Positions 18,001 through 61,214 of a stretch of 64,000 nt of DNA are shown here, piece by piece. The stretch lies in IMG/VR virus record IMGVR_UViG_3300046454_000825, positions 1 to 64,000 of that record. One strand, written 5' to 3'. The position numbers and the translations under genes are program-made. The DNA is from a virus. Position 1 is the first letter of the stretch, and every line of letters starts with the position of its first letter. Below the pieces are notes generated by a model. It saw only the letters and a list, made by a program, of their open reading frames with translations. It had not been told where the DNA came from and did not search any database.

Positions 18001-19553
18001 AGCTCGGGGGCACACTCGGCCAGGGTTACAACGCAGGCGCAGCAAAATCTGCGGCCCTTAAGTATCAGGCGCTCGTCCAGAAAGCGGGAGCCAGCCACGA
18101 CGCGACATCTGTGCAGGAACTCGCGCAGGCGCGGCAGGCCTACTTCTCAGGGATTCAGAGCGCCGTCTCCGGCGACCTGCAGTACGCACTCGACTTCGCG
18201 AAATCGCCGGGTGAACGAGGGGCGGCTTATGCACAGGCGATCTCTCGCTACCAGGCATTCGGCAGCAGCTCCGACGATGCGGCGAAGAAAGCTCAGGCCA
18301 ACCTCACCAAGCTGACTCAGGAACGGGCGAAACTCCAGAAGCGTCAGTTCGCGCCAGAGACGCCGGGCAAAGAGGTGCACCCCAGCGAAATCGCCAAAGA
18401 ACAGAACACGGCGAAAGCGATCCACGCACTCGATCTGGAAATCCAGGCCGAGACCAAAAAGATCAGCGACATCAAAAAGAGTCAGACCGAAAAGCGCAAA
18501 TACATCAAAGACATCATCCAGCAGCTCCGCATCCAGGAGTTCGAAGCCAACAGTGCACTTCGCCAGGCGCAGGAGGGTGCGCGCGAGGCTCTCACTGCCA
18601 ACCCGATCGTGCAGACCGAAGAGCAGATCAAATTCCTCGGTGGGCAGATCTCCAGGGCGATCGCGATCTACGGCAAGGAGTCCCAGCAGGTGCTCGGTCT
18701 GATCGCCGAACAGCGCCAGGCGCGTCAGCAGCTTGCCCAGAACGAACTATCGCTCTTCCAGAGCAAAGGTGGGCTGGAAACGGCAGGGATCATCGAACAG
18801 GTCCCGAAAGAGAAAGTCACGCTGCGCGGTGCCCACGGACTCGAAGCGCAGCTTGCCTTCGTCAAATCTCACGAAAACCAGTTCGACCCGAAGACTCTGA
18901 TCGACCTGGAGACGCAGGTGGCCGCGGCGAAAGCCCAGCTTGCCTTCGACATCCAGCAGGAAGCCAATCAGGTCAAGGACGCGCACTTCGGGATCGAACA
19001 GGCTCGCGCGACCGCGGCCGGCCACACTGTACGTGCAGCCGAGCTAGCCGTCCAGCAGGCGAGATACGACGTCTCCCATGCTCAGACGCCGCTCGAAAAA
19101 CTGGGAGCCCAGCAGAACCTGATTCAGAGTCTGGCGGCGAAGCGCGACGCGGTCGCTCAGGCCCGGGTGGAATCCATCACCTTCGAGGCGAACATCTCGA
19201 AAATCACCACGCAGCAGGAGATCGAACAGCTCGAAACGCTCTTGCACACGTACAAACTGAGTCTCTCCGCCCGTCGCCAGCTCCGCGAGCAGATCCACTC
19301 GCTCAAAGGTCAGCTCTCCAGTGAAGGCGAAAAGTTCAACCTCAACATCGGCGACTTCGCACTGCCGACGGCCTACGACATCCGGCGTGCGGTGCTCGGT
19401 GCCGGCGGCGGTCGCGGCGGCACGACGGTCACGCAGACCAACGAATTCCACATCGAGAACCACTCAAATGATCCCGCCGTGCTCGGTCGAGCGATCGGTC
19501 ACGCTCTCGGCCGCGGCGCGGAGTCCGCAGCTCGATCGGCAGGAGTCGTATGA
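15072..19553 (+). CDS. Tape measure protein
   Basis: 1493 aa, Ala/Gln/Lys helical with hydrophobic segments; TTG start with GAGGGA RBS; follows the chaperone pair. Confidence 0.9.
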   Translation: MPGSFDFGAFEKEAAQLLAQLRASADRIAAVEKEIKGGRATTSEVRSAASEPAAAGAPGEVSKSAEAEIRSRGLATDQLLAKQRELTTATRASSESERVMAQTMAQTSAGMQKSGALTNEFVDAAKRGEVTVRELGQQVAGTIAKFGGWIVAGSAVYFAFDALSAVKRGAIDASSGVNELQRVVNGVNTRKAQQEFQSLAGHFNLPIKEVADAAYEMGKVFNNQEQAFTAAKQVLYAVKIGELDTAAASRYLISIINGFHLPASRMADVLDQVNQAQNNFGVSTEDVLSGVAKASGAFHQASGEFKQYGKDYSYLLALITTGVKVTGQTGPTVGTAIARAPNFLRRPSNQEVLRQFGIEPNGPIEKVLNEAFKRVKTLTGKQVQELAAGIGGPQYGARVFTGLLSNYQKFKEVSEGTSPKASKGSAQRELNRQLGGVNEQVTKLGISLERIGEGLVSSHLLDSLGLMLGSINSLLSGVNYLVQDFSKLPDFTQKFLAYLIQASIVLRLMRRGQVGELIGGGPGAQPGAVRGGIAGFFGEGDKGFARRARTSLVNEQEALLRERGGLGGQLSRAAAEERYTGQGAVAANAALIKEQQRSGPLSAETAAAQTRQIAAERAYVAAQETTIALKQKEASSAERLASVQASLSRVNNFGGRLNTKAALEEARRQGLPLPAGYGKGGVEPPVRLATPVLPSQQAELDAVKEMEKRGLIPPGLESETQRATQSTAGATGRLTGLGQKFGGLRGGLGKMGGAMSQLLGRAGELAFAAFTIGFLADALTGVANSVGSEFEHVGSSVTSAKAAAERAKENAEGSKAGESFKERLFNAVTEHTNIGPVPIPTLGLGSQKGIGEERAEAEEQALATYREIQSLQAKERGSGKTVQYRYASDIEKNIKQVEKSGKSRKEIREALNKYDEQIAQSSQALLGGKNAKGELEQAKTVLSKARVKSAASNELVEKLQLLTSKEISERLQASVTQLGGTLGQGYNAGAAKSAALKYQALVQKAGASHDATSVQELAQARQAYFSGIQSAVSGDLQYALDFAKSPGERGAAYAQAISRYQAFGSSSDDAAKKAQANLTKLTQERAKLQKRQFAPETPGKEVHPSEIAKEQNTAKAIHALDLEIQAETKKISDIKKSQTEKRKYIKDIIQQLRIQEFEANSALRQAQEGAREALTANPIVQTEEQIKFLGGQISRAIAIYGKESQQVLGLIAEQRQARQQLAQNELSLFQSKGGLETAGIIEQVPKEKVTLRGAHGLEAQLAFVKSHENQFDPKTLIDLETQVAAAKAQLAFDIQQEANQVKDAHFGIEQARATAAGHTVRAAELAVQQARYDVSHAQTPLEKLGAQQNLIQSLAAKRDAVAQARVESITFEANISKITTQQEIEQLETLLHTYKLSLSARRQLREQIHSLKGQLSSEGEKFNLNIGDFALPTAYDIRRAVLGAGGGRGGTTVTQTNEFHIENHSNDPAVLGRAIGHALGRGAESAARSAGVV

Positions 19554-22098: not shown

Positions 22099-22562
22099 TG
22101 CCAGAGCCAGCCCTACAAGCACTGGAGCGCTCCTTCAAGGGGCTGCGAATCGGCGCGACGCTGGACATGCAGAAGCTGAAGGACCGTGCCGAAAAGGACG
22201 GCCTGATCGAGCGCGACGAGCAGTTCCACCTGGCGGTGGCCGGTCTCGCAGAGGAGTTCTTCCTGTGGACGTCGACGAAGATCAAATTCGCCACCGCGTT
22301 CGTTGACGCAACGGGCCAGAGAGATTCACCCTTCGACCGTCCACATATCTCGGTCGGCTGCGAGATCTACACACCGGTGCCGGTGGCGATCAACGCGGTG
22401 GTCATGGAATGGGACGTGACCGACCGGAATGAAACGGTAGGCGCGACCGTGGCGCTCGGCGTCGCGAGTTCCGATCAGACCACCAAGTTCAAGGGCGCTG
22501 TGCATCTGACCTTCCAGGGCTACGGCGCGCCACTCAACACCTTCGACGACGCCGAACTATGA
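22098..22562 (+). CDS. Minor tail protein
   Basis: Coupled on both sides within the tail module. Confidence 0.55.
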   Translation: MPEPALQALERSFKGLRIGATLDMQKLKDRAEKDGLIERDEQFHLAVAGLAEEFFLWTSTKIKFATAFVDATGQRDSPFDRPHISVGCEIYTPVPVAINAVVMEWDVTDRNETVGATVALGVASSDQTTKFKGAVHLTFQGYGAPLNTFDDAEL

Positions 22563-25500
22563 AAAAGACGATCTTTGCCGGCTTGACGATCCTCGAACCA
22601 GGGGAGGGCCTCAGCACTGACAACGGGTCGTTCGTCGACGCAGATCCGCAGATCGTCGATCGCTTGCTGGAAATCGGAGCCAAAACCCATCGCCACACAG
22701 GCCTGGCCGGGCTCTCCAACCCCTCCGGTGCGCCGGTGGCGAGCATCGTCGCCTCAGGGGGCGCTCTGCCATCGGATCTGGCCATCTCCGTCGGATACAC
22801 ACTGGAGGACTCCCAGGGCGGCGAGACGCTGCTGTCGCCGATCACGGTGGTCGGCACGCCGGGCGAGATCCCCGCGCCGCCAGCGGCACCCAGCGCCCAG
22901 GTCAGCCACGCGGCCGGGCAGCTTGAGGTCAACACCTACTACTACGCGACGACCTTCGTAGACAATGAAGGCGGCGAGACGGAGCTCGGACCCGCGGTCA
23001 ACGCCGAGCGCCAGCCCGGATTCGCGTCGGGCCAGGTCATCCTCACCCAGCTCTCCTTCGGCATGGCTGCAGCCGGCGCGGCAGGCTGGCGTCTCTATCG
23101 AGCGGTCGGTGGCGACACCTTCAACCTGCTCGCGACCGGCAGCGGAGACGAATTCGTCGACGATGGTAGCCAGCCGGTGAGCTGCGACGTCCACCCGCCG
23201 GCGGGCGAACAGAACACGACGGTCGGATCGTCCTCGCTGCTCGTGACGCTGCCGTCCGCGGTCCCCGGGCAGGTCTTCATCAACGTCTATGCGTCGATCT
23301 CGGGCGACTTCGGTGGCAGCAGCCTGCTGGGGCAGTTCCCGCTGGCCAGCGCCGGGCAGATCGCCGTCTTCCGCTCGCTCGAATTCTTCGACGTCAACCC
23401 GCCGTCGGTCAACCTCTCGATCGGGGGGGCGCACCAGATCGACCCCGACACCGAGCTCCTGGACTGGCACTGGAAGCGCCCGGTCCTCGCGTCGGGTGCC
23501 CTCGGGTCGGGCGTGACCGGCGACGTGCGGCTCGTGAAGAGCACAGGCGAGCTCTACGCCGTGCTCGCGCCGTCCGCAGTCGCCTCGGGCGCGAGCGAAT
23601 GGGTGAGGATCGCCAGCGCTGGCGGCGGCGGCAGCGGCAGCGTCGGCCCGCAAGGACCCACCGGCCCACAGGGTCCAGAAGGGCCAGCAGGTCCGAAAGG
23701 TGCCAGCGGGGCAAGCGGTGCGATCGGTCTGACCGGGCCGCAGGGTCCGACCGGCCTGACGGGTGCCACCGGGCCACAGGGTCCGACCGGTCCCGGTGAC
23801 AGTTGGAAGCCGCCCGTCTTCGCATCCGCCAGTCTCGGCTCGGGTGTGCTCGGCGATGTGAAAATGGTCGAGCAGGAAGGTGAGCTCTACGGTGTGCTCA
23901 GCGCGTCCGCCTCCACCGCCTCCGCGTGGGTGAAGCTGAGCAGCGCCAGCACGCTTGAAGCGAGCGCGACGCAGGGCATCGTCGCGCCGGTCCAGAGGCT
24001 CACCATCCGGGCCTCCGGGGTGGCGATCGTCGACATCGTCAAACAGTCGGCTGGGCGCGCGCTTTACACAGTCACCGTTCCTCCTGTCGCCGGCCCCCAG
24101 GGACCAGAAGGACCGAAAGGAGCAAGTGGCGCATCGGGTGCAATTGGCCTGACCGGTCCGACCGGTCCACAGGGTCCAGAAGGACCCGCCGGTCCCAAAG
24201 GGGCTAGTGGTGCATCCGGTGCCATCGGGCTGACCGGGCCACAAGGTCCGCAGGGAGAAAAAGGCACAACTGGGGAAAAAGGTGAACCAGGAGAAACCGG
24301 TCCTAAAGGCGAAACAGGATCAACGGGTGCTACTGGCGGAACGGGTCCGCAGGGACCAATTGGTCCGGGCAATAGTTGGAAGCCTCCGGTTCTGGCGTCG
24401 GGCAGTCTTGGCTCGGGTGTACTCGGCGACGTCAAAATGGTCGAGCAGGAAGGCGAGCTCTACGGTGTCCTGAGTGCCTCAGCCTCAGTCGCTTCCGGCT
24501 GGGTAAGGCTAAGCAGTGCAAGCTCGCTCGAAGCAAGTGCCACACAGGGTCTTGTCGCCCCAGTTCAGAGACTCACGATTCGGGCATCTGGAGTAGCGAC
24601 TGTCGACATCGTCAAACAATCCGCAGGCCGTGCCTTATACACAGTTACGGTGCCCCCAGTCGCAGGCCCCCAGGGGCCACAGGGAGTGCAGGGTGAAAAA
24701 GGAACCACCGGGGAAAAAGGTGAAAAAGGTGAAAAAGGATCGACCGGCGAAAAAGGCGAAACCGGGTCGACTGGATCGACCGGGGCCACCGGTGGGACTG
24801 GGCCGCAAGGTCCGGTAGGGCCAGGTAATAGCTGGAAGCCCCCTGTCCTCGCATCGGGAAGTCTGGGGTCAGGTGTACTCGGTGACGTCAAAATGGTCGA
24901 GCAGGACGGTCAAATTTATGGCGTTCTCGGGGCATCGGCCACGGTGGCGTCGGGGTGGACAAGACTGGCGAGCGGCATCTTGACCGCTAGTGCTAACAAC
25001 AGTGTCCCTGGAGTAGCCCAGCTTGTGAACAAGCTCACCTTCGAAGGTGCGGAGGGAGTGAGAGTTGCCATCTCCCAACCGAAACTTGGAGAGGGAGTAA
25101 TCACCGTGAAAGCGGGTGCGGGGGGGCTGATCTATAAAGGGGAGAGTTCCACCAATCTGGCAACAACCAACTTAGCGTGTCTTCGGAAGAACAAAGAAAA
25201 ATGGAGCGAAGTCACCGAAATATGCCTTTCCATTGAATCCTTGAACTGGACCACCGCTGAAGATCTTCTCCTAAAAGGGATGGCAGTCGGTTCGGTCATA
25301 GTGATCTCTGTTCAAAGCGAAGAGAACGTCAGGCCTATTCGCCAGATGTTCAAGATTACGAGCATCGAATCGACGGCGAACGGTCCGATCGCCAAAGTGG
25401 TTGGCCTCTCTACTACTTCGACAGCTACTGCGAACGAAATCGCCTTCAAGGAACTGGAGGTAGAGTTCTACGCCCCGTTTCATTACGGTCTCGTCACGGC

Positions 25501-25996
25501 CTTGCCAGCATCGCCAAGGCTCCTTGACAGGTGTAGCTTTATCGCGGATGAAACAAACGGTGTCATCTGGGAGCTGCTTTATGACGGCGAAGGCACAAGG
25601 CCGTGGAAGAAGATTGGTGGACCTCCACTCTTCAATGAGGTCGCTACCCAGGAGACGATCAAATCAGCGACCTACGCGAACCTAGCGACAGAAGGTCCGT
25701 CGGTCAAAGTGCCGCTACTAGGTGATTACGACGTAGCAATCGGGGCTGGGATCGGGTCGTTCTCGCCCTCAGTAGAAATCAATATGAGCTACGCGATCGG
25801 CGGAACCGCCGCTGTGGATGCTGATTGCCTCAAAGTCTTCCCAGGCCCCAACGGATGCTTCGTGGAGGCTAAGCGGGTACGGCGTAAGGCATCAATCGCG
25901 AAAAACACCACACTCTTGAGTAAGTACAAAATATCCGGTGGCGAAGGATCATTCTACTTCCGCTGGATGAGTGTTGATCCGATCAGAGTCGGCTAA
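22559..25996 (+). CDS. Collagen-like tail fibre with repeated modules
   Basis: Three G-X-Y tracts alternating with WK(R/P)PV..ASG.LGSGV.GDV modules; lower-GC C-terminal tip. Confidence 0.85.
23464..24980 (+). repeat. Internal module/collagen repeats in the fibre gene (4 module copies, 3 collagen tracts; approximate bounds)
   Basis: Near-identical translated blocks, e.g. [25 protein letters not shown]. Confidence 0.85.
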
Positions 25997-32470: not shown

Positions 32471-33391
32471 GTGAAGCATAGCGAGACGATCGGACAAATG
32501 CAACACGACCAGAGTGACGATCCGCCGGCGGAGGTTGTAACCGGCTACATCAAAAGCGAGATTTACGCCGCGGACGGCGCAATTCTGGGCACCCTGGCCG
32601 GATTTATCGAGCTCGGCGGGGCTTTCGGAGCGGGGGGAACCTCTAAGGAGGGGGGTGAGGAGATCTCGGGATTTAACAACAAACCACCTTCAACTCCAGA
32701 CGTAAGTTTTGAAGAGGGGTCTGGGGAGGGACTTTTGGTTGAGGACATCGAAGGCATGTCGATGGAAGAGATCGCCACCCGCTTGAGGCAGCGCGGGATA
32801 ACCCCGGCCTCCTCAGCCAGCAAGGACGACTTGATCGACCAGTTGGCTGTCGCCCTGCGTGCTGGTCGTTCGAAGGTCGGGGCGCAGGTGGATGCCGTGT
32901 GGTCGGCGTATGTGACCGCCATGAAGCCCAGGCGAACGGCAGCAGGTGAGGAGGAGAGGCGGATCATCCGGGCGGCGTTGAAGGTCGCGACGGTTGATGA
33001 CTGTGTCACCTGCATCAAGGCATGTGCTGCATCGGATTACCACATGAAACGCGGCGAGTACATAAAACGCAAGGGCGGGAAATATAACTCGCTCGGCAAG
33101 ATCCTCAAGCCGCGGCCCCGACTCGGTGAGACGCAACGCTCTCGCATCGACTGGTGGCTCGACAAGGAGATTTCTACCGGCGTTGCGGGATTTCCGTCCG
33201 CTGACCCTGCAATCGTGCGCCAGCATCAGCTAGAAGTACAGCGCGGTCACGGATCGGACGACACCGATGCCGTGAGGAAGGCAAAGGATGCCGAGGCTTG
33301 GCTTGCGAAACACGGAATCGAAACCACTAGACGCGAGAGCGACGGGTACCCGATCTTCAAACGGGTCGACGCTCACGGCGGGGGCCAATGA
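32471..33391 (+). CDS. Putative replication initiator / helicase loader with HeH/Rho-N-like motif
   Basis: Directly upstream of DnaB; MSMEEIATRLRQRGI..ASKDDLIDQL; C-terminal VWSAY..IRAALK..C..CI..Y.SL. Confidence 0.5.
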   Translation: MKHSETIGQMQHDQSDDPPAEVVTGYIKSEIYAADGAILGTLAGFIELGGAFGAGGTSKEGGEEISGFNNKPPSTPDVSFEEGSGEGLLVEDIEGMSMEEIATRLRQRGITPASSASKDDLIDQLAVALRAGRSKVGAQVDAVWSAYVTAMKPRRTAAGEEERRIIRAALKVATVDDCVTCIKACAASDYHMKRGEYIKRKGGKYNSLGKILKPRPRLGETQRSRIDWWLDKEISTGVAGFPSADPAIVRQHQLEVQRGHGSDDTDAVRKAKDAEAWLAKHGIETTRRESDGYPIFKRVDAHGGGQ

Positions 33392-34749
33392 AAGCTCCAC
33401 ATTCCCTGGATGCAGAGCGCAGCGTCCTTGCGACGATGCTCAGGCAGGGCGACAAAGTTGCGGCCGAAGTGATCGGAACGCTCTTGGAGGGAAAGCATTT
33501 CTACGCGCCCCCGCATCGTGTGATCTTCGAAGCGTTGCACGAGAACTACTACGCGGATATGCCGCTCGACTCGTTGACGATTGGCACGCGCTGCTCGAAA
33601 ACTCTCTCGAAGCTGTGGTCGACGTCCGAGGAGGTCGCGGTCGAACGGGTCAACGACCTGGCGGCGTCGCGGTTCCCCGGCAAGGTCATCGACCACGCCA
33701 AGCTGATCAAGGAGCACGCGGATCTGCGCGGCCTGCTCGGCCTCTGCAAGACGATCGAAGGGGAGATCGAGGCTCAGGAGCGCGGCGCGGAGGAGATCGC
33801 CGGCTTGGTCTCCCAGCAGGCGATGCGGATCGCCACGGACTCGCTGCTGACGGCCGAGATCATGGACTTCGGCCAGCTCGGCCGCAACTACTACGAGCAG
33901 GCGACGCTGGCCAAGAAAGCCACCGAAATGGGGATCGAGCTTGGCGTCAAGTTCGGGATGCCGTTCCTGGACAACTACACCCGAGGCCTGCGCGCGACCG
34001 AGTTGATGCTCGGAGCCGGCGAGCCCGGCGTCGGCAAGAGCGCCGTCTATTGGAAGGCGGCGCTGCGCTTCGCCCAGAAGCAGATGGTGAAGACCGAGGA
34101 CAAACGGATCGGCACGCTGGTGCTCAGCTTGGAGATGGGGGAAGAACCGACCAACGTCAGGCTCGCCCAGACGCTCACCCACATCGACGGCGGCAAGCTC
34201 CGCGAGGGCACGATGTCCGACGCCGAGATCAACAAGATCCTCCACGAGTGGGGCCGGCGCAAAGGCATCCCGCTCTACTTCAACTTCGCCTCCAGCGCCC
34301 GAGCCAGCCAGCTTCGAGCTCTCGTCGTCGAGGGCATTCGCCGCTACAACGTCGGCCTGGTGGTCATCGACCACTTCCGCCACTTCAACATGGATCGGCG
34401 CTACGACAACCAGATTATCGAAGACGAGGACAAGGTCAAATTCCTCAAGGAGGCGATCGCCAAGGATCTCAACACCGCGGTGATCTGCGTCTGCCACACG
34501 ACCAAGGGGATCGCCGAAGCCCGCAATCAGCGGCCAAATCTTACCCACCTTCGCGGCAGCTATCAGGTCGCAGCCGCGGCAGACTTCGTCAGTTTTATCC
34601 ACCAACCGTACATGTACGCAACCGACGAGGCTCGCGAGTCGGGAGAGGTGACTGAGTCCCAGATGGAGATGATCTGGGAGAAGAACAGGCATGGCTATAA
34701 AGGCATCGCGCAGTTCCATATGAACGCAGCGCGCATGGACATTAAATAG
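33388..34749 (+). CDS. dnaB: DnaB-like replicative helicase
   Basis: [12 protein letters not shown]-terminus; Walker A GEPGVGKS; SLEM; VVIDH; P.L.HLRGS..AD; KNRHG. Confidence 0.95.
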
Positions 34750-36105: not shown

Positions 36106-36426
36106 ATGGAAGCCAGAGCAAGAACCAGCGATCCGGATACATCCCACGCCGCAGCGAAGAGTGTCAAAAAGCTGACGCTCGTTCAGACGCGGGTGTTGGC
36201 GCTATTCAGGCGGTGCGGCTCGATGACCGACACCAGGCTGATCGAGACATGGAATAAGGAACGCTCTCGGTTCCCCGACAGCTACCCCCAGATGTCGGAG
36301 TCAGGCCTGCGTACTCGCCGGCGCGAACTCGTCGACCTTGGTGACCTTAAGGACTCAGGGCTCAGGCAGGAGCTGCTGTCGGGGCGTAAGTCGATCCTCT
36401 GGTGCAGGCGTGTCGATCGCTGGTGA
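36106..36426 (+). CDS. Winged-HTH DNA-binding protein
   Basis: ARTSDPDTSHAAA..RTRRRELV.G..DSG, a common phage wHTH family. Confidence 0.7.
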   Translation: MEARARTSDPDTSHAAAKSVKKLTLVQTRVLALFRRCGSMTDTRLIETWNKERSRFPDSYPQMSESGLRTRRRELVDLGDLKDSGLRQELLSGRKSILWCRRVDRW

Positions 36427-37211
36427 AGCCGCTGGTCATCATCCCGATGTACCTCACCGAGGACTCAGACGTGGAGACCACGATGGAAGCTGTGCGCAGC
36501 GTCCGCAAGACGGTCAGTGACAGCGTCGAGATCCTGGTCGTCGACGATCACTCACCCGAGCGGCAGTTGGTCGACGGTATCGAAAAGGGGCTGGGGCGCT
36601 TCGACGCCGAGCTCCACCGCAAGGATGAGAACTCCGGCTTCTCCAAGACCGTCAACGTGGGCCTGCAGCGAGCGCGCGACCAAGGTCGGGACGCGGTTCT
36701 CCTCAATGCCGATGTTGAGATCAGCACCCCCGGCTGGCTGAAGATCATGCAGAAGACAGCCGATGCCAACCGTCGGCCGGCGGCTGTTGTCGGTGCGCTG
36801 CTCCTATACCCGACGGGCTTGATCCAGCACGCGGGGATCTATTTCTCCCTGCTGACCCGGACCTTCGATCACATGTACAAGTTCGGGCCGGGCAACCTAC
36901 CCGAGGCGTTGATCCAGCAGAGCAGGCCGGTCACCGGCGCGTTCCAGTTCATCCGTCACGACGCGCTGATGAAGGTGGGGCTCTACGACGAGGGCTTCCA
37001 GATGGCCCACGAGGATGTCGACTACTGCATCCGGACCTACCTTGCTGGCTTGGAATGTGTATACCAACCGAGGGTCAGGGCGTTTCACTTCGAGATGATG
37101 TTCCGCGGTAGGCCTTCTCCCAAAGTGCAGGAATGGCAACAGAAGTCGTGGGTCTATTTTGCTACTAAGTACTCAACCCAAAATTTCGCAGGGTTAGTTC
37201 CCTTCGTCTAA
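36423..37211 (+). CDS. Glycosyltransferase family 2
   Basis: VVDDHS, NSGFSKTVN.G, LLNAD, VTGA, G.YDEGF..EDVDYC. Confidence 0.92.
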   Translation: MKPLVIIPMYLTEDSDVETTMEAVRSVRKTVSDSVEILVVDDHSPERQLVDGIEKGLGRFDAELHRKDENSGFSKTVNVGLQRARDQGRDAVLLNADVEISTPGWLKIMQKTADANRRPAAVVGALLLYPTGLIQHAGIYFSLLTRTFDHMYKFGPGNLPEALIQQSRPVTGAFQFIRHDALMKVGLYDEGFQMAHEDVDYCIRTYLAGLECVYQPRVRAFHFEMMFRGRPSPKVQEWQQKSWVYFATKYSTQNFAGLVPFV

Positions 37212-37219
37212 GGAGACCA

Positions 37220-38860
37220 ATGAACGAGTGGTGGAGATACGAGCAGCTTTCCAGCCGGTGGCCCTACGATTGGGCTCCAGCAACCCGCGGCGATCGGCCG
37301 TGGGATCAGCTCGACTTCCACCTAGACCTGGGGTGTGGTCGCGTGCCCAAGGCGCGCATGGGGATCGACCGCAAATTCTCCGAGGGCGCGACGGATCTGG
37401 TCATAGATCTGGATGAGATATTCCTCTATCTGATGGAATCCGAGCGCAGCGGGCACCGCATGCAGGAGCTCCTGGAGTTCCCCGGCGAACGTAGACTGCC
37501 GTTCCCGACCGGCTCAATCGAGTCGATCATCACCCATCACTGCTTCGAGCACATCGGCGAGGGTTTCGAGCGGCTGATGGAGGAGTGCTATCGGGTGCTC
37601 AAATGGGGTGGCGTCATGCGTATTGTGACTCCCGTATTCCCATCATCGGCGGCGGTCTCTGAGTACGACCACAAGCGCTACTTCATGCAGGGCACGCTGA
37701 TGGGGTTCTGCCAGGAGCTGCCCGGCGGCGCGTCGATCTATGACGCCTTCGCCGAGCGCTACAACTCGTGCTGCTTCCGCCAGATCGACGAGGAGGTTTC
37801 ACCTCCGACGCCGGCGGAGAAGCAGTGGACAACCGAGGATGTGCGGGAGATTCGAACCACACTATGGAAATTCAGTGACGGTGAAGATGAGCCCGAACCG
37901 TCGATGTTCATACCGGAGGAGACCAATGATTTTAGTCCAATTCAAGCTGGACAAGGTGATCATCTTCGAGGGGACGATGATGGACTCGGCGCTGCCGAGC
38001 CTGGGGGAAACGATCAAAATTCCGGGGAGCCGGCGCAAACTGAAAGTGGGGATGGTGACGAGGCGGCTCTCCAAGGGCCGAGCGAAGCAGCGCAACGGGT
38101 TGATCAAGCAGGAGGCGGTGGTGGACCTAGTCCCTTCGCATCCGTCTGCGTCCTCAGCTACGAAAGGCTGAGCCTGCTGCGTGAGTGCATCGGCTCGATG
38201 CTCGCCGGCGCACACTCACCCTTCGAGCTGATCGTACATGACGATGGCTCTCGCGATCCCGAGCTCCGTCAGTGGCTCTTGCAGATGTCCGAAGAGGGCG
38301 TGATCTCGACGCTGCTGATGAATTCCCCGGGCTGGAACGAGGGGCAGGGCATAGCGATGAACCGGATGGCCGCTGTCGCGAAGGGCGATCCGATTATCAA
38401 GTGCGACCAGGACCTCGTCTTCGAGCCCGGTTGGCTGCGCAGGGTTCAAGAAGTGCTCAACACCAACGCAAGGGAGACCCACGAAACGGGTGAGCCGATG
38501 ATCGGCGCGCTGGGTATCTTCAAGTACTTCACCGATCCCGTCGACCATGAGAGGATGTTCCTTCGGGACTGGATCTCCTACGACGAAGTTCTCGATTTCG
38601 TCGGCTCGTTCATTGCGATACCGCGGACGGCGTGGGAGATCTTCGGGCCGTGGGGAGAGCGCAGCGCCGCCTTCGCCGAGGACGCCGTGTTCAAGGACAC
38701 ACTGCAGAAGACGGAGGGCTGGTGCTGCGCCCTGACGAAAGAGGATCTGGCCCGCAACCAGGGGTTCGGCGTCGGGCCTTCGACCGTGGTGGTCGCCGAG
38801 GGCACAGTGCAGGCGATCCAGACCGGTCCTAAGGTGATCGAGCCGGGGGTGATCGAGTGA
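37220..38860 (+). CDS. SAM-dependent methyltransferase fused to a GT2 glycosyltransferase
   Basis: LDLGCG..FEHI..ECYRVLKWGG (MTase); SYER..VHDDGS..KCDQD..ED (GT2). Confidence 0.85.
   Translation: MNEWWRYEQLSSRWPYDWAPATRGDRPWDQLDFHLDLGCGRVPKARMGIDRKFSEGATDLVIDLDEIFLYLMESERSGHRMQELLEFPGERRLPFPTGSIESIITHHCFEHIGEGFERLMEECYRVLKWGGVMRIVTPVFPSSAAVSEYDHKRYFMQGTLMGFCQELPGGASIYDAFAERYNSCCFRQIDEEVSPPTPAEKQWTTEDVREIRTTLWKFSDGEDEPEPSMFIPEETNDFSPIQAGQGDHLRGDDDGLGAAEPGGNDQNSGEPAQTESGDGDEAALQGPSEAAQRVDQAGGGGGPSPFASVCVLSYERLSLLRECIGSMLAGAHSPFELIVHDDGSRDPELRQWLLQMSEEGVISTLLMNSPGWNEGQGIAMNRMAAVAKGDPIIKCDQDLVFEPGWLRRVQEVLNTNARETHETGEPMIGALGIFKYFTDPVDHERMFLRDWISYDEVLDFVGSFIAIPRTAWEIFGPWGERSAAFAEDAVFKDTLQKTEGWCCALTKEDLARNQGFGVGPSTVVVAEGTVQAIQTGPKVIEPGVIE
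37926..38171 (+). CDS. Nested out-of-frame 81-aa basic protein (MILVQFKLDKVIIFEG...)
   Basis: GGAGGAGACCAATG start, same context as the AGGAGACCAATG of 37220; protein-like sequence. Confidence 0.55.
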   Translation: MILVQFKLDKVIIFEGTMMDSALPSLGETIKIPGSRRKLKVGMVTRRLSKGRAKQRNGLIKQEAVVDLVPSHPSASSATKG

Positions 38861-39054
38861 GGTACGCGGTGCTGTTCACCACTTCGCCCGAAGCCGAAGA
38901 AGGCAAGTCATGGGCGATCGTCGAAGCCGACGAGCCGGCGCAGGCTGTCTCGATGGTCGGTGGTCGCACGGTGGCCATGGATGACAAAGCCCTGTGCATC
39001 CCACTCGATGAGAAGCCGATCCCCGTCTACGCGACGGTTGGGTGGCACACATGA
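38857..39054 (+). CDS. Hypothetical protein
   Basis: GTGA coupling. Confidence 0.55.
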   Translation: MRYAVLFTTSPEAEEGKSWAIVEADEPAQAVSMVGGRTVAMDDKALCIPLDEKPIPVYATVGWHT

Positions 39055-39266
39055 GCGATCCGCAGCTCGACAAGATCCTCAAGGACGCGATCGAGGACGC
39101 CAACCTGGCCAGCAAGAAGAGCAGGCCGAAGTGGATGGGCGGCGCGGCTCCGCGTGAACGCCTGTCGGAGTCAGGGCGCAGGAAGCGGCGCAAACTCAAC
39201 AAGGCGAACGCGAAGCTCCGGCCGAAGGTCAGGAAGCGGAGTAAGCACGGGAGGCAGGTGCGATGA
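39051..39266 (+). CDS. Small Lys/Arg-rich protein
   Basis: ATGA coupling on both sides. Confidence 0.55.
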   Translation: MSDPQLDKILKDAIEDANLASKKSRPKWMGGAAPRERLSESGRRKRRKLNKANAKLRPKVRKRSKHGRQVR

Positions 39267-40120
39267 AGGCAGGCATCGTGATACCGGTTGGCCCTGGCCG
39301 GGAAGAGAACCTGGGCCGAGCGCTGGTGTCGATCGAAGAGATGAAGTTCCCGCCCGAGCACATCGTCCTGGTCTGCGACGGGCCGGAGTCAGAGGTCAGC
39401 GATCCGGGGATCTCCCTTCCTCACTCGCTCGTTGTTACGCCTCACAAGCATGAGCCCGGTAGGGAGCAGCCCCGCAACGTTGGGGTACGTGTGCTGCAGG
39501 ATCTGGGCGGCTTTACTCACGCCTGGTTCCTGGACACCGACATCATCCTGGATCCCTGGGCGCATTCGCACTTTCAGGCTGCGATGGAGGTCGACACACT
39601 GGAGCGGATCCTCGTCGGTCCCTACGACTGGCTTGCGGCGAACACCAAGGTGCCAGTGCCCGACCTGCGAAACGATCCGCGCTGGCCATCGTTCGACAAC
39701 CACGACATGCCCGAGGCCCTGACCAACGACCTCAGTGCCGGCTTGGCCTGCTTCAGCGGCAACCTGATCTGGCCGATTGAGGCCTTCGTTCGGATCGGCG
39801 GCTTCTGGAACGAGCTCCACCACGGCCGCTGTGAGGACGGCGAGCTCGGACTCCGTGCCGTGGCCTGCGGCATTCCGATTAGCTTCGTCGCCGCGGCGCG
39901 CGGTTGGCATCTCGATCACCCGATCAACGGCGAGCTGACGCTGCAGCGCAATGAGCGCGACGTCCCGATGCTGAACGATCGCCATCCCTGGGTCCAGGGC
40001 GAGGGGCTATTTGTCGTCGAAGAGGACGGCAAACGGTTCAACACTCACTGTCGCTGTGGCTGGTCAGGCAACACGATGGAGATCTGGGAGCACCAGGCAG
40101 GGTGTGAGCAAGCCCGATGA
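39263..40120 (+). CDS. Glycosyltransferase family 2
   Basis: IVIPV, VCDG, RNVG, FLDTD, GGFWNE..G.CEDGELG. Confidence 0.85.
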   Translation: MKAGIVIPVGPGREENLGRALVSIEEMKFPPEHIVLVCDGPESEVSDPGISLPHSLVVTPHKHEPGREQPRNVGVRVLQDLGGFTHAWFLDTDIILDPWAHSHFQAAMEVDTLERILVGPYDWLAANTKVPVPDLRNDPRWPSFDNHDMPEALTNDLSAGLACFSGNLIWPIEAFVRIGGFWNELHHGRCEDGELGLRAVACGIPISFVAAARGWHLDHPINGELTLQRNERDVPMLNDRHPWVQGEGLFVVEEDGKRFNTHCRCGWSGNTMEIWEHQAGCEQAR

Positions 40121-40902
40121 GCCGTCTTCTCGTCTGCATACCGACCATCGAGGGCCGGGAGAAGTTCCTGGAGCGAGCCATGTGGGGCTATCGCACTCGC
40201 ACGCCTCACACCGACATGCACATCGAGGTCGTTCACGACTATCCTACTTGTGGTCAGGGTTGGCAGGCGGCGGTCGAGCGGGGACTCTCTCGCTTGCAGC
40301 CGCCCCCTGACTTCATCCACTTCGGCAATGACGACATTATGGTGGCCGAGGGCTGGTTGCCGCCGCTAATAGATGCCGCCACACAGGGGTTTCTGCCGGC
40401 GTCTCGGATGGAGCCGGCTGGCTACCACCTTGGCGAAGAGCCGGCGGAAGCGATTGCGCCATGGTGGGTCAAGCCCAACGAGCGCAGCTACTTCTACTCC
40501 GATCTGCCCGAGAACCAGCCGAAGAATGACTGGGCTCCGGTCGACCACAGTGCATTGCCATTCTGTTCGGTCGGTCAGTGGCTGAAGATCGGTCGGTTCA
40601 TCCCGATTCACTTCGGCACTGACAAGTGGTTCTATCACCGAGCCCGTCAGGAGGGCATCACCGCGGTCGCGCGTATGGACTCCGTGATCTTCAACTACGC
40701 CACTCAGATCGGTAGGCAAAAGGGTGCGTGGACCGAGACCGACATCATCGACTTCGACTGTGTCTTCGCCTATCCGGCCTACGTGGAGGGGCGTTTGAAG
40801 CCAGAGGAAGAGGACCCCCAACGTCTCACGGGTTCTGGCCTGGCGATGGTTAGGCGCTGGCGTAAGGCGAACTTTGACGGACCACACCACTGGGAGGCTT
40901 GA
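40117..40902 (+). CDS. GT-A fold glycosyltransferase-like protein
   Basis: VCIPTI.GRE, FGNDDI (DxD), GW; FGTD.W. Confidence 0.7.
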   Translation: MSRLLVCIPTIEGREKFLERAMWGYRTRTPHTDMHIEVVHDYPTCGQGWQAAVERGLSRLQPPPDFIHFGNDDIMVAEGWLPPLIDAATQGFLPASRMEPAGYHLGEEPAEAIAPWWVKPNERSYFYSDLPENQPKNDWAPVDHSALPFCSVGQWLKIGRFIPIHFGTDKWFYHRARQEGITAVARMDSVIFNYATQIGRQKGAWTETDIIDFDCVFAYPAYVEGRLKPEEEDPQRLTGSGLAMVRRWRKANFDGPHHWEA

Positions 40903-41684
40903 TGGACACCACGCTTTTGATCTCGACCTTCAACCGTGCCCCGCTTCTTGATCGGTCGCTGGCGCGCCTGGCGCAGCTCACCGTTCCCGACGAGGTGCTG
41001 GTCGTCGATGACGGCAGCACCGACGAGACAGCCGAGGTCTGTGATCGCCACGCGGATCTCCTGCCGTTGACCTACATCTACAACCACAATCCCGAGTGGT
41101 CGATCTGCTCCATGGCCCGCAACATCGGGGTCAAAAATGCCGCCAACGAGTGGATCATTACCTCCGAGCCCGAGCTCTTTTTCGTCACCGACGTCGTTAA
41201 GCAGTTCGAGTACCTGCAGCCCGAGCATCCGGAGCAGGTGATCAGCGCTGGCACGATCTACTTTCAGCCCGAGGGAGGTCCGGATCCGAGCACGAATGTC
41301 GAGGGCCTGGAGGTCGCTGGCGACTACACGCCGCCGACGGGGATGGAGGAAGCGATCGGCTGGGTCGCTCCGTTCTCGGCTCTCTACAACCGCAACTGGC
41401 TGGAGCATGTAGGTGGGTGGGACGAGGAGTTCCCGGGTCCGTGGGGCTGGGACGATATCGACCTGCTGACCCGTCTGCGGATCAAAGGCATCAACCAACA
41501 CATTGCGCTCGACGTGAAAGCCCTGCACCAGTGGCATGGGCCGAAACATCGCGGCGACGTCGACTTCCAGAACGAGCAGTACTTCCGGGCCAAGGACTTC
41601 GTCGCCGGCGGCGTCGAGTCACCGGATCTTCCGGACCTAATCGCCAACCAGGACCGTGAGTGGGGGGTGATCGTTCCCCGATGA
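40902..41684 (+). CDS. Glycosyltransferase family 2
   Basis: STFNR, VVDDGSTD, ARNIG, GGWDEEF..WGWDDID, H.WH; DxD replaced by EPE. Confidence 0.9.
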   Translation: MDTTLLISTFNRAPLLDRSLARLAQLTVPDEVLVVDDGSTDETAEVCDRHADLLPLTYIYNHNPEWSICSMARNIGVKNAANEWIITSEPELFFVTDVVKQFEYLQPEHPEQVISAGTIYFQPEGGPDPSTNVEGLEVAGDYTPPTGMEEAIGWVAPFSALYNRNWLEHVGGWDEEFPGPWGWDDIDLLTRLRIKGINQHIALDVKALHQWHGPKHRGDVDFQNEQYFRAKDFVAGGVESPDLPDLIANQDREWGVIVPR

Positions 41685-42325
41685 AGTACGAGGAGCAGCT
41701 CATCGAGGAGGTCAAGACGTGGTGCATCCAGGATCCGGAGAGACGCGCGGAGAAGATGCAACGCGAGCGCATCCGGCATCCCAAACTGATCAAGGATCTG
41801 CTGCTCGACAAGCTCGACACGTCGACCATGAAGATCCTGGAGGTCGGTGGTGGACCCGAGCCCTTGAGTGACCTGCTCGACTTCGAGTTCCGCATCGTCG
41901 TCGACCCCTGCGCTGACGAGTACGCAGAATTCTTCCCGACTCCAGATCACCTGAACATGGAGGCCGAGGACATGGGAGACAGCACCTGGCACGAGACCTT
42001 CGACCTGATCATCTGCACCAACGCGCTCGACCACGTTCGGGATGTGCCATCGGTCATGAGCAGGATCTACCGGTGCCTCAAGCCGGGTGGTTACTTCGCT
42101 GTCATGTGCGCCGAGAACAACGCGATCACCAACCCGCACCCGTGCCACAAGATCAACCTGACCGCGGCCGACCTGCACCGATCGTGCGACAAGTGGGCCG
42201 AGACCTGCTGGGAGCTTACTTATAGTAAGGACGGGTATCGCTATGGCTGGGCCGAGTACCAGGGCAAGTGCGGCCAGCCGGCCTTCGCGATTCTGTTCCG
42301 CAAGGCGGTCGGGTATGAGCAGTGA
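41681..42325 (+). CDS. Class I SAM-dependent methyltransferase
   Basis: ILEVGGG, VDP, FDLIIC.NALDHV, LKPGG. Confidence 0.9.
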   Translation: MKYEEQLIEEVKTWCIQDPERRAEKMQRERIRHPKLIKDLLLDKLDTSTMKILEVGGGPEPLSDLLDFEFRIVVDPCADEYAEFFPTPDHLNMEAEDMGDSTWHETFDLIICTNALDHVRDVPSVMSRIYRCLKPGGYFAVMCAENNAITNPHPCHKINLTAADLHRSCDKWAETCWELTYSKDGYRYGWAEYQGKCGQPAFAILFRKAVGYEQ

Positions 42326-43364
42326 GCTCGACGTCGCCAAAGATGTCTGCTTCATAGGGCTCGGCGCGAGTGCACCGTGCTACTACCGCGTCATGCTTCC
42401 AGCGATGGCCCTGAAATGCGACTGGGCCGGAGTCGCCGGTGTTCCACCCAGCCTGCATTGGTTGACCGGCTCGGTGAAGGGTCAGTCGAAGATGCCGGAC
42501 CTGATCGACGACTACAAGATTGTGGTGCTGCAGCAGCCATGCGGTGACCAGTGGCTGAAGCTCACCGAGGCGATGCAAGAGGCGGGCAAGAAAGTTCTCT
42601 TCGAGGTTGACGATTATCTCCATGGCATTGCGAAGCGTGAGGACCACCACTTCAAAGATTCCTACGACCAGAGAGTCATGTTCTTGTTCGAGGATATGAT
42701 GCGCGCGTGCGATGGGATTATCACGTCGACTGAGTACATTGCGAAGAAATACAAGAAGTTCAACCCCAACATCTACGTATGTCGCAATGGGATTGATCTG
42801 AATCGCTACGAGCTGAGCAGACCTGACCGCAAGACGGTGAACATTGGCTGGGCGGGTGCGACCGGTCACACCAAGGCAATCATGCCGTGGATGAATCAGG
42901 TGCTCGCGGTTATGCAGGAGAAACCGGAGACCTGCTTCGTGTCGATAGGCCAGCCGTTCGCCGATGCGATCAGGCCCTACATCGACGACGAGAGGGCGAT
43001 CTCCGTGCCCTGGGCGGCGATCGAGCAGTACCCCTCGGCGATGTCCATGATCGACATCGCTCTGGCTCCCGCCGGCGCAGGCGGCTGGTACCTCGGCAAG
43101 TCGGATCTGCGCTGGCTGGAGGCCGGCGCGCTCGGGATCCCGATCATCGCTAACCGCAAGGTGTACAAGGAAATCGAGGACGGGGTGACAGGCTTCACCG
43201 CCGAGAACCCCTACATCATGACCGAAAAGCTGATGCCCTTGATCGGTGACCGAGACCTGCGGCTGCGGATCGGTGACCAGGCGAAAGAGTATGTTCGCGA
43301 GCATAGGGGCATCGAGACAATGGCCCAGTCTTGGGTCACCGCCTTCGAGGAAGCCTATGAATGA
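42315..43364 (+). CDS. GT-B (GT4-like) glycosyltransferase
   Basis: YYRV.LP, FEVDDY, ITST, NGID, IGWAG..H, DIALAP..KS.LRWLEAGALGIP. Confidence 0.88.
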   Translation: MSSELDVAKDVCFIGLGASAPCYYRVMLPAMALKCDWAGVAGVPPSLHWLTGSVKGQSKMPDLIDDYKIVVLQQPCGDQWLKLTEAMQEAGKKVLFEVDDYLHGIAKREDHHFKDSYDQRVMFLFEDMMRACDGIITSTEYIAKKYKKFNPNIYVCRNGIDLNRYELSRPDRKTVNIGWAGATGHTKAIMPWMNQVLAVMQEKPETCFVSIGQPFADAIRPYIDDERAISVPWAAIEQYPSAMSMIDIALAPAGAGGWYLGKSDLRWLEAGALGIPIIANRKVYKEIEDGVTGFTAENPYIMTEKLMPLIGDRDLRLRIGDQAKEYVREHRGIETMAQSWVTAFEEAYE

Positions 43365-43743: not shown

Positions 43744-43937
43744 CCTTGAAACCTGCGATCGCCTTCATACTCACCGACACTGGCCATAAGCTCCACCTGC
43801 CGGCGGACGACACCACCTTCGAATACCCAACGTCAGGACCGGATCGTCAGCAAACCCGCTGTGGCCGTTCTGGTCGTGTGGTCATCAAGGGTCGTTACGC
43901 CGACGAGGATGTCTGTGTGACGTGCCTATGGCGGTAA
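43740..43937 (+). CDS. Small Zn-binding hypothetical protein
   Basis: H..CG..CxxC; coupled. Confidence 0.5.
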   Translation: MTLKPAIAFILTDTGHKLHLPADDTTFEYPTSGPDRQQTRCGRSGRVVIKGRYADEDVCVTCLWR

Positions 43938-45610
43938 CACACGGCAAAGTAGAGCGCTACGGCGAGACGTGGTGGGTATACACCGAGCCCCATCTGATGA
44001 TCAAGCTCAAGCGCTGGTTCCCCCGCGTCGAGGCCAATCGCCAGGGCGCTCTGATCATCCGTGCCACGTCCGAGGTCTCGCGGGATCTGGAGTGGTTCAT
44101 GACGCGCTACCCGATGGAGATGAAAGAGAAGGATCGGACGGCTCTCGGCCGAGAATCGAAGGAACACAAAGGCCTGGAGCACGATGCACAAGAGATCCTG
44201 GCCGGCAAGGCGCTGAAGCGGGAGCTCAAATGGGAGGTCAAGGATGCCCGTGACTACCAGCTCGTGGCCGCGGATCTGGCGCTGCGCACCGGTCACCTGC
44301 TGATCGCCGATGATGTCGGGCTCGGCAAGACGTTGGAGGCCCTGCTGATCCTCAGGGACGCCGGCCTACTGCCCTGCCTGATCGTCTGTCAGACGCACCT
44401 GCCGCACCAGTGGAAAGAAGAAATCGAAGACTTCTGCCCCTGGCTCAAGCCGCACATTGCTCGGAAAGCGTCTCCCTACAAACTGGCTCAGTTCGAGAAG
44501 GATGGCCTGACACCGAATGTTCTGATCATGGGTTATTCGAAAGTCGCTGGCTGGGCACCGGTGTTGAAAGGGAAAATCAAATCGGTCATCATCGACGAGT
44601 GCCAAGAGGTTAGGATCGAGGGCTCTCAGAAGTACGTTGGCGTGGCCATGGTGGCCGATAAGGCCGACTGCGTGGTTGGCACCACGGCGACGCCGGTCTA
44701 CAACTACGGCGACGAGATCTTCAACATCATGGACGTGATCGCTCCTGGTTGCCTAGGCGAGCGCGACGAGTTCGTCAGGGAGTGGGGCAAGCGGATCGGC
44801 AACCACATGGGTGTCAAGGATCCCGAGGCGCTGCGTCACTACCTGATCGGCCAGAACCTGATGATCCAGCGCACCAGGGCTGAGGTCGGACGAGAACTGC
44901 CGGAGACGATCCGGGTCCATCAGTCGATCGAGTCCGACGAGATCGTCTTCAACGAGCTGATGGCCGATCACATCGAAACGGCGAAGATCCTGGCCAGCCG
45001 CGAAGCGAGCAGGGAAGAACTGTTCAGACTGAGCGGGGAGTTCGAGTGGCAGCTCCGCCGCGCGACCGGCGTGGCCAAGGCACCCTTTGTCGCCGAGATG
45101 GTGAAAGGCCTACTGGAGTCGGGCGAAAAGGTGGTCATGTTCGGCTGGCACCACTCCGTCTATGACATCTGGGAGGAGGCACTGGCCGATTATCACCCGG
45201 TGTTCTATGGCGGTAAACAGTCACCGACGCAGAAGCTGCACGCCAAGGGTAAATTTATGGATCCAGAGGGTGACTGCAAAGTCATGGTGATTTCTTTACG
45301 TTCGGGCGCAGGGCTCGACGGGTTGCAACAGGTGTCACGAATCGCGGTGTTCGGTGAGCTCGACTGGTCGCCGACTATGCATGACCAGTGCATCGGCCGG
45401 CTCCGGCGCGATGGGATGACCGACCCCGTGGTCGCCTACTTCCCCGTCTCCGAGTATGGATCGGATCCGTTCATCGCCGAGAAGCTGCAGCTTAAGCGCA
45501 GCCAGAGTGAGCCGTTCATGCATCCTGGGGCCAAGCTCCTTCAGGTCGACGAGGAGGCAATGGCGGGGAGATCTTTCCGCATGGCAACAGAGTTCCTGAA
45601 GAAGGATTGA
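43928..45610 (+). CDS. SNF2-family helicase
   Basis: DYQ, ADDVGLGKT, IIDECQ, TATP..N, GLDGLQ, Q..GRLRRDG. Confidence 0.92.
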   Translation: MAVTHGKVERYGETWWVYTEPHLMIKLKRWFPRVEANRQGALIIRATSEVSRDLEWFMTRYPMEMKEKDRTALGRESKEHKGLEHDAQEILAGKALKRELKWEVKDARDYQLVAADLALRTGHLLIADDVGLGKTLEALLILRDAGLLPCLIVCQTHLPHQWKEEIEDFCPWLKPHIARKASPYKLAQFEKDGLTPNVLIMGYSKVAGWAPVLKGKIKSVIIDECQEVRIEGSQKYVGVAMVADKADCVVGTTATPVYNYGDEIFNIMDVIAPGCLGERDEFVREWGKRIGNHMGVKDPEALRHYLIGQNLMIQRTRAEVGRELPETIRVHQSIESDEIVFNELMADHIETAKILASREASREELFRLSGEFEWQLRRATGVAKAPFVAEMVKGLLESGEKVVMFGWHHSVYDIWEEALADYHPVFYGGKQSPTQKLHAKGKFMDPEGDCKVMVISLRSGAGLDGLQQVSRIAVFGELDWSPTMHDQCIGRLRRDGMTDPVVAYFPVSEYGSDPFIAEKLQLKRSQSEPFMHPGAKLLQVDEEAMAGRSFRMATEFLKKD

Positions 45611-59964: not shown

Positions 59965-61214
59965 GCGCCGAGCGCACCTTCATCGTCGGCGTGCCCAAAC
60001 TCGAACTGGTAGAGGAGATCGAGGCACCCACGGCCGGCGACGCAGTTCACCGTCTGCTCGACAGCACGAGCGGTGTCTTCGAGGAGAAGACTGATTCGGT
60101 CCCCTTCGGCGAAATCTTCGGTGAGATGGCACCATCGACGATCGCCTGGGTGATCGACACCAAGGACGATTCGGTGACACGGTTCAAGTTGGTACTGGGC
60201 TGGGATAAAACCACCGAGTCGATCAACTGATGGGCGCGGCCGTCTTCTTGCTCTGGGCCTGCCTGTTCCTACTGTTCATTCTTCTTAGCGGTCCGCTGAG
60301 CTGGGTCTTCTTCGGACTGATGCTTTGCGTAGCTGGCTGGGGTGGTGCACTCTTTCGCGATTGGATCGACGGTCAATGAAAGCCCCCGTGATCGCGGTCC
60401 TCTGGCTGGTGTTAATCGCCGCATATCTTGAAACATCCGGTGAGGGACGCTGGGCGCTTCTTGTGGCGGCATGGATCGTCGCCCTCTGGGGAGGCCTTGA
60501 GTTCGGCATCTGGCTGCGTCGGCGGGAGGGCCGATGAAGGCTTACATCGTCACCCAACACTGGCGCATCGACAGTGAGATCTTGGTCTACGCTGAGACAG
60601 GTGCCCTTGCAGTGGAGGATGTCGAGACGGGTGAGAAAATCGCAGACTATCCTGAACTGCGAAGTCTCAGTCGAGCTAAGCGCGCTCCTGAGTACGATGA
60701 AGACGAGGGTTCGAAGTGAGGTGGCTACGCCGCCGGCGGGCGCGGGCATCTATCGTGCGCTGCGAAGCGATCGAGGTAAAGCTCACTCTGGTTCACTTGC
60801 GGACTCTGATCAAGCTGGAGCGCAAGGAGCGACGTTACGAGGCGGTATCGTGAAGATCGAACTCACCAAGGACGACGACGCAGTGTTCGGTCAGCGTCCG
60901 AGAGGCGAGTCCATTGTCATTAACGTACCCGACGACCTCGGCGTGCAAGATGGGCGAATCCGCGCCTTCGAGATGCTGCAGCGCGACAATATCACCGAGA
61001 ACCGGATGGAGTGGACGGCGGAGGTGGTGGAGTGATCGACCGCTGGGAAACACTGCGCGGGGCCAGCATGACGAAGGAAGACGAAGGGGCATTCTTCACG
61101 GTGGCCGACGTGAAGATGGCGCTGGCCGAGCACGCGAAGACGAATGTCGCCCCGCGCAAACGCGATCGTGACCTGTACAGGGCTCTCGGTTTCACTAAGA
61201 GGCAGCCTTCCTAA
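59961..61214 (+). other. Small genes, including two 2-TM membrane proteins (60230-60379, 60376-60537) and paralogue copies (60534-60719, 60850-61035)
   Basis: Manual translation; coupled starts and stops. Confidence 0.6.

Follow-up and report, generated by a model that had tools for sequence, protein, structure and literature searches.

A variable glycosyltransferase and methyltransferase island in the replication operon of an uncultured soil phage may build a glycan for the phage's own particle

Introduction

To our knowledge, self-glycosylation of the phage particle has so far been demonstrated only in a few mycobacteriophages, and the only experimentally characterised roles that we found for virus-encoded enzyme sets combining glycosyltransferases (GTs) and methyltransferases (MTs) concern virion glycans. 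Among phages, Corndog encodes an O-MT and three GTs (gp35-38), and Che8 gp108-110 modify the capsid and the tail tube, according to Freeman et al. 2023 as cited in PMC11600133 and PMC12363180, and to PMC4351075. The gp108-110 genes are located outside the Che8 virion module. In the chlorovirus PBCV-1, the capsid glycan is modified by A064R, a GT-GT-MT fusion (PMC7826918). Here, we analyse an island of GT and MT genes at 36.4-43.4 kb in the IMG/VR virus record IMGVR_UViG_3300046454_000825 (hereafter G000), a complete genome of 78,875 bp with a 127-bp terminal repeat, of which bases 1-64000 form our window. The best explanation that we can offer, tentatively, is that this island is a self-contained phage glycan assembly line whose likeliest acceptor is a virion protein.

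The island resembles the Che8 and Corndog systems in being a phage-encoded set of soluble GTs accompanied by O-MT functions and dependent on host sugar donors, in lying outside the virion module (as in Che8), and in a host that likely belongs to the same phylum. It differs from them in that 1) there is no orthology, the only similarity being that of one GT (GT2e below), 28% identical to Corndog gp37 over 124 aa, 2) it has twice the GT domains and two MTs, and 3) its content varies among relatives. With PBCV-1 A064R and A111/114R (PMC7826918), it shares the combination of GT and sugar O-MT domains in one protein and a cytoplasmic setting devoid of membrane machinery. However, PBCV-1 is a eukaryotic virus making N-linked glycans on Vp54, and the domain order in the island fusion is MT-GT. 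The likeness noted here is one of domain make-up.

Results

We confirmed that the island comprises six GT domains, five of the GT-A and one of the GT-B fold, and two S-adenosylmethionine (SAM)-dependent MT domains, all encoded on the + strand. These eight domains had been proposed from the letters of the window alone, and each was found where the original prediction had placed it, using Pfam, PHROG and NCBIfam scans, a comparison of a family profile with the PDB, or AlphaFold2 modelling followed by Foldseek. The tight packing and translational coupling that had been described are likewise apparent, with junctions that are either 1-11-nt overlaps or an 8-nt spacer, and the gene starts originally chosen at 36423, 41681 and 42315 are the likelier ones. 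The enzymes are soluble, as had been supposed, with no 19-residue window in the island proteins hydrophobic enough for a membrane helix. The absence of a flippase or membrane GT also holds: island proteins show no hydrophobic segment, and no such Pfam family was matched in the open reading frames (ORFs) that were scanned. GC content is ~62% throughout G000, island included, and all GT2 matches in the 78,875-bp genome fall within the island. The GT-A domains display the DxD-type motifs DQD, DTD, NDD and ADVE, with EPE instead in the product of the gene at 40899.

The first gene, GT2a (36402..37211), encodes a GT-A enzyme (PF00535, 1.2e-9), and its likely start at 36423 overlaps the stop of an upstream ORF encoding a winged helix-turn-helix-like protein. 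Homologues with 41-70% identity are found in six of the relatives introduced below (G001, G002, G003, G005, G006 and G007). The second gene (37220..38860) encodes a fusion in which a class I SAM MT (residues ~1-215, with Methyltransf_11 matched at residues 35-133, 1.7e-8) is followed by an acidic, Gly-rich linker (~216-300) and a GT2 domain (~301-546, with PF00535 matched at residues 308-416, 1.7e-14). This MT-GT2 fusion is peculiar to G000, its halves being separate ORFs in G001, G002 and G003, and its PDB matches are weak (D-glucose O-methyltransferase, 0.03; GmaR, 0.27). Two small ORFs follow. The first (38857..39054, 65 aa) is possibly not a gene, with no Pfam match and no tblastn match in the relatives. 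The second (39042..39266, 74 aa) has an acidic N-terminus, a very basic C-terminus and no Pfam match, and it weakly resembles an 89-aa ORF at the same position in G001, with which it has the motif RP[KR]WM in common (E 3e-4, in a small database).

The next three genes encode GT-A enzymes. The product of the core gene at 39263..40120, which has DTD at residues 91-93 and is kept in G001-G006, falls under Pfam thresholds as a single sequence but matches NCBIfam EpsD (4.4e-10), and a profile of its family built from eight homologues matches chondroitin synthase (1.2e-9) and TarP (6e-5) in the PDB over nearly its whole length. The accessory gene at 40117..40902 encodes a divergent enzyme with an FGNDD motif and no Pfam or PDB sequence match. 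Its AlphaFold2 model (predicted local distance difference test score, pLDDT, 93.7) has a GT-A fold, for which Foldseek returned ppGalNAc-T2, WrtF and GlfT2 at E about 2e-7 and a template modelling (TM) score of about 0.5. The 40117 family comprises 35 metagenomic homologue clusters, and 4/24 homologues match PF00535. Among the relatives compared, this gene occurs in G001, G002 and G004 only. An hhalign comparison of the 39263 and 40117 families aligned the N-terminal nucleotide-binding half only, with a probability of 13%, and was not used as evidence. The third of these genes, the accessory gene GT2e (40899..41684, starting with TTG at 40899 or ATG at 40902; PF00535, 1.9e-15), is found in G001, G004 (two copies), G005 and G008.

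A second class I SAM MT is encoded by an accessory gene at 41660..42325 (likely start 41681; Methyltransf_23, 3.7e-13), with homologues in G001, G004, G005 and G008. Both MTs have the motif LDLGCG and no DNA-methylase motifs. They look more like O-methyltransferases of small molecules or sugars than like DNA methylases, and the best PDB match, though weak (E 0.03), is a D-glucose O-methyltransferase. The last gene of the island (42243..43364, likely start 42315) encodes a GT4-like GT-B enzyme (PHROG 7162, 6.5e-32) of an overwhelmingly viral family with roughly 2,000 viral members, kept at 38-68% identity in G001-G003 and G005-G008. Its model (pLDDT 78.5) has two Rossmann domains and is closest to GT4 enzymes. 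The nearest PDB structures are PglA, ManT, MshA, BshA, PimA, TarM and SdgB, the first five with E values of 1e-13 to 1e-11 and TM scores of 0.59-0.69.

Most likely, the island builds a methylated sugar chain. In the cytoplasm, the soluble GT-As and the one GT4-like GT-B would add sugars stepwise from host nucleotide-sugars, and the two SAM MTs would O-methylate some of them. Nucleotide-sugar genes had been reported missing from the window, and this is true of the whole G000 genome (six-frame search, no Epimerase match), so that host nucleoside diphosphate (NDP)-sugars must be used. It does not extend to the relatives G001, G002 and G004, whose islands carry a dehydratase/epimerase that would provide an additional sugar type. 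The product would be a strain-specific, partly methylated hetero-oligosaccharide, and its likeliest acceptor would be a protein of the phage's own particle, of the kind glycosylated in mycobacteriophages Che8, Corndog and Myrna and in chloroviruses. The analysis establishes the folds and solubility of the enzymes, the coupling of their genes, the conservation of the site with variable content across the lineage and the transfer of the core between unrelated phages. We infer a single chain, methylation of its sugars and, most importantly, a virion protein as acceptor.

These enzymes could instead make a free cytoplasmic methylated oligo- or polysaccharide, akin to the methylmannose or methylglucose polysaccharides of mycobacteria, or glycosylate a host protein or small molecule for host takeover. 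The methylmannose-polysaccharide pathway uses soluble GTs and SAM O-methyltransferases, and its mannosyltransferase ManT is the closest solved structure to the island GT-B by TM-score (TMq 0.69), while other top neighbours (MshA, BshA and TreT) act on small molecules. The position of the island also makes expression together with early or middle genes plausible. However, the fold neighbours differ by no more than a few orders of magnitude in E value, too little to tell them apart, the core of the island is also found in a 38%-GC phage (G003), outside the taxa known for such polysaccharides, and the hypervariable content described next is hard to reconcile with an intracellular metabolite. We regard a product of this kind as unlikely.

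Relatives were sought by scanning with the fusion protein, which returned three viral contigs, and with the capsid-like protein, which returned seventeen. Eight were fetched or sampled (G001-G008). All relatives that have the capsid-like gene and span the region (G001, G002, G005, G006 and G007) carry a GT/MT island after the gene for the DnaB-like replicative helicase (33388..34749, +; PHROG 19, 3.6e-61), which is the left landmark of the island throughout the lineage. The island is also present in G008, which likewise has the capsid-like gene and whose coverage of the region is from inside the island onward. On the right, the island is flanked by the gene for a SNF2-family helicase (43922..45610, +; SNF2-rel_dom, 4.8e-20) in G000, G001 and G008. 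When DnaB was used in a single-sequence scan for relatives lacking the island, G001 was the sole return. Promoter and terminator scans around the island did no better than shuffles.

While its site is fixed, the gene content and order of the island vary among relatives, with 2-7 GTs, 1-2 MTs and, in some, a dehydratase/epimerase. G005 has seven domains in a changed order, G006 the five core domains only, and G007 mainly GT2a, the GT-B and an FkbM methyltransferase. The islands of G001 and G002 contain an extra NAD-dependent NDP-sugar dehydratase/epimerase (1e-34, closest to dTDP-glucose 4,6-dehydratase), together with an FkbM methyltransferase in G002, and the 31-kb fragment G004 has seven GT2 matches and a dehydratase/epimerase. 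GT2a and the GT-B form a minimal pair, present wherever the region is complete. Within the lineage, the island behaves like a glycan locus whose content varies while its site stays the same. The G001 island also harbours, between the second MT and the GT-B, a 242-aa ORF (L002 16043-16771) that weakly resembles the N-terminal part of C5-cytosine DNA methylases (4.4e-5).

The island core extends beyond this lineage. G003, a complete phage of 102 kb and 38% GC with no tyrosine integrase, has nothing in common with G000 apart from the four core genes, at 34-41% identity, and a weak match to DnaB. Since only the four core genes are shared, the core behaves as a mobile, self-sufficient cassette. In G003, the ribonucleotide reductase gene adjoining the cassette (L004 14762-17401) contains an intein with a LAGLIDADG domain. 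Further afield, E. coli Phapecoctavirus phages, such as Escherichia phage nepoznato (gp055-gp052, L047 2642-5786), have four adjacent annotated GT genes directly upstream of a primase/helicase gene, and two of their products are distant relatives (24%) of the island GT-B. A literature search on the function of this GT cluster found nothing.

A surface glycan on which selection favours diversity would suit the variable content, and the virus precedents are virion glycans, which together make virion glycosylation the best explanation. A surface glycan could also be one of the host, in which case the enzymes would modify an envelope polymer or lipid-linked precursor at the cytoplasmic face (teichoic acid, arabinogalactan, lipoglycan or an O-antigen-like chain). 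In infected or lysogenic cells, such a change would block superinfection or prevent loss of progeny to debris. The variable gene content would suit this as well, and the island has much in common with bacterial surface-glycan loci (O-antigen, capsule, TarM/TarS/TarP), in which GT-A, GT-B, MT and NDP-sugar-modifying genes are shuffled at a fixed site. TarP, TarS and TarM, which are soluble GT-A or GT-B enzymes, are among the profile and fold matches. TarP is prophage-encoded, and a tyrosine recombinase is encoded in this lineage 4 kb downstream of the island, on the opposite strand. Unlike those loci, however, the island is phage-borne and lacks an initiating phosphoglycosyl transferase or other initiating membrane transferase, as well as a flippase, a polymerase, an ATP-binding cassette (ABC) transporter or any other membrane protein. 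It lies within a replication operon, with no separate promoter of the sort usual for conversion genes, and it also departs from Gtr-type serotype conversion, there being no Pfam family for a GtrA flippase, bactoprenol GT, membrane GT-C or acetyltransferase of that system among the ORFs scanned and no hydrophobic segment in the island proteins. The presence of the core in G003, which has no tyrosine integrase, counts against lysogenic conversion as a general role, a search of 185,579 species genomes found neither the capsid-like gene nor the 40117 family in a prophage, and the matches of TarP/TarM type are generic for GT-A and GT-B enzymes. An envelope target seems to us rather improbable.

We also considered that the island glycosylates the phage's own DNA against restriction, through a priming chemistry not yet known. 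As in phage DNA hypermodification (glucosyl-hydroxymethylcytosine in T-even phages and GT clusters associated with TET/JBP), the GTs are near replication genes, and the module or a distant relative of its GT-B adjoins such genes in three unrelated contexts, namely DnaB in the G000 lineage, DnaB/primase/PolIII and ribonucleotide reductase in G003, and primase-helicase/DNA polymerase in the E. coli Phapecoctavirus. The small ORF in the G001 island that resembles C5-DNA methylases (4.4e-5) would also fit. On the other side, the window had been said to lack a base-priming enzyme, and so does the remainder of the genome, in which six-frame searches (78,875 bp) gave no match to Thymidylat_synt, Tet_JBP or TGT. 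No hydroxymethylase of the Thymidylat_synt family and no TET/JBP enzyme was found by six-frame searches of G000-G004, while TGT was searched for, and not found, in G000 only. Since the known priming enzymes are absent from these five cassette-bearing genomes, DNA glycosylation by known routes is unlikely. Furthermore, Pfam scans of the larger G000 ORFs revealed neither a DNA polymerase nor an enzyme of nucleotide metabolism, the top 50 fold neighbours of the GT-B model include neither the alpha- nor the beta-glucosyltransferase of T4, and both MTs look to be of sugar type, with no DNA-methylase motifs. The GTs are far more numerous than in DNA hypermodification systems. Indeed, five or six GTs together with sugar O-methylation exceed by far any DNA sugar modification known to us. 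Protection of phage DNA in this manner is accordingly very unlikely. The wider proposal that a methylated oligosaccharide is placed on phage DNA or another non-virion target, with priming by something other than a thymidylate synthase-like or TET/JBP enzyme, would explain how the cassette works across unrelated capsids and why replication genes are its neighbours in three unrelated phage groups, but we judge it highly improbable too.

Returning to a virion protein as acceptor, several observations weigh against it. First, the essential initiating GTs of the mycobacteriophage systems, Che8 gp110 and Corndog gp38 (47% identical to each other), have no homologue in G000-G004, whether searched by blastp, tblastn or a two-protein hidden Markov model (HMM). 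All four glycosylated proteins of these phages (Corndog gp41 and gp49, Che8 gp6 and gp11) end in G-(D)-S, which, from our own reading of the sequences, may be their acceptor tag. In contrast, the capsid candidate of G000 ends in ..RIVLT and the tail candidate in ..VKGSI, and the orthologues likewise differ from G-(D)-S. Second, the large virion proteins have no Ser/Thr-rich tract that could serve as acceptor. A collagen-like fibre of 1145 aa (22559-25996, +), with three long Gly-X-Y tracts (Pfam Collagen, 3.4e-25), was rejected as well, its tracts being found in G000 only and absent from the island-bearing G001-G004, which makes this fibre specific to G000. Third, the island is located in the replication operon and has no copy of TCGTAnATTA, the motif characteristic of the virion module. 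Five exact copies of this motif, at 1146, 1914, 4098, 6221 and 12259, are all on the + strand in the virion module, and when one mismatch is allowed there are 10 matches versus 2.4 expected, none of them at the island. Fourth, a cassette moving between phages with unrelated capsids would have to recognise a very simple acceptor tag, unless its target is not specific to the phage. A C-terminal -GS was also considered as acceptor and discarded, -GS endings being not enriched and absent from the capsid and tail candidates.

A 200-aa protein encoded directly after the capsid-like gene (8741-9343, +) has a Pro/Ser-rich disordered C-terminal tail, and the tails of the G001 and G002 orthologues are rich in Pro/Ser/Thr but differ in sequence. 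This tail is a weak candidate for an acceptor.

The picture originally drawn, a multi-sugar, O-methylated glycan made on virion proteins by soluble enzymes from host NDP-sugars, therefore stands as regards the soluble glycan-building enzymes, the O-MT type and the host NDP-sugars. Its virion target does not have the same standing, as nothing ties the island to virion proteins.

The remainder of the genome provides the context of the island. A long virion module on the + strand, including the tape-measure gene (15072-19553, +) and the collagen-like fibre, precedes the replication operon, which is also on the + strand, from about 29.5 to 46.5 kb, and contains a PD-(D/E)XK exonuclease, DnaB, the GT/MT island, the SNF2 helicase and a sigma-like protein. 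Scans with PHROGs and Pfam returned almost nothing for the virion-module proteins, and the capsid and tail assignments are consequently based on order, size and weak matches. The candidates so assigned include a decoration-like gene (7077-7649), the capsid-like gene (7723-8664) and a tail protein gene (12563-13795). A 724-aa protein of this module gave a PhoH-like partial match as its sole result among phage records. Between two conserved virion-module genes that are adjacent in G001 and G002, G000 has a 425-aa ORF (4113-5390, +) with no counterpart in these two relatives and no Pfam, PHROG or NCBIfam match. At 61214-61705 (+), 18 kb from the island and with no evident link to it, a gene encodes a 163-aa hexapeptide-repeat acetyltransferase that resembles those of xenobiotic type (Vat family, 4.8e-29; CatB, 8.5e-29; both scores far under the curated cut-offs).

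Soil and rhizosphere metagenome runs contain the same DNA as G000. No cultured relative was matched among 50,697 phage records by megablast with the island or tblastn with the MT-GT2 fusion, and no tRNA gene was found in G000. Neither the capsid-like protein nor the 40117 family has a prophage relative among 185,579 GTDB species genomes, and the host is therefore not established. The best clue found is a 106-aa ORF (genome 73152-73472, +; L005 13152-13472) with a full-length match to the actinobacterial integration host factor (IHF) model (3.6e-11; 43.5 bits, under the 60-bit curated cut-off). In addition, Actinomycetota is the commonest labelled phylum in the Atlas cluster nearest to the GT-B. 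Together with the high GC content, these features make an Actinomycetota host plausible. The term actinobacteriophage, which the original prediction had brought in, is thus plausible and not established.

Discussion

What distinguishes this island from the systems described so far is its position in a replication operon, its lineage-wide yet shuffled content, its minimal pair of GT2a and GT-B, and the transfer of its core to a low-GC phage. Moreover, its enzymes are unrelated to the proven glycosylation enzymes of mycobacteriophages.

If the target is the virion, an uncultured soil lineage would maintain a dedicated locus that varies like an O-antigen locus and whose core is exchanged with unrelated phages. 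The surface glycans of phages would then be more than a curiosity of phage therapy, namely a trait that diversifies under selection in soil. Knowing the target would guide the annotation of thousands of viral members of the GT-B family.

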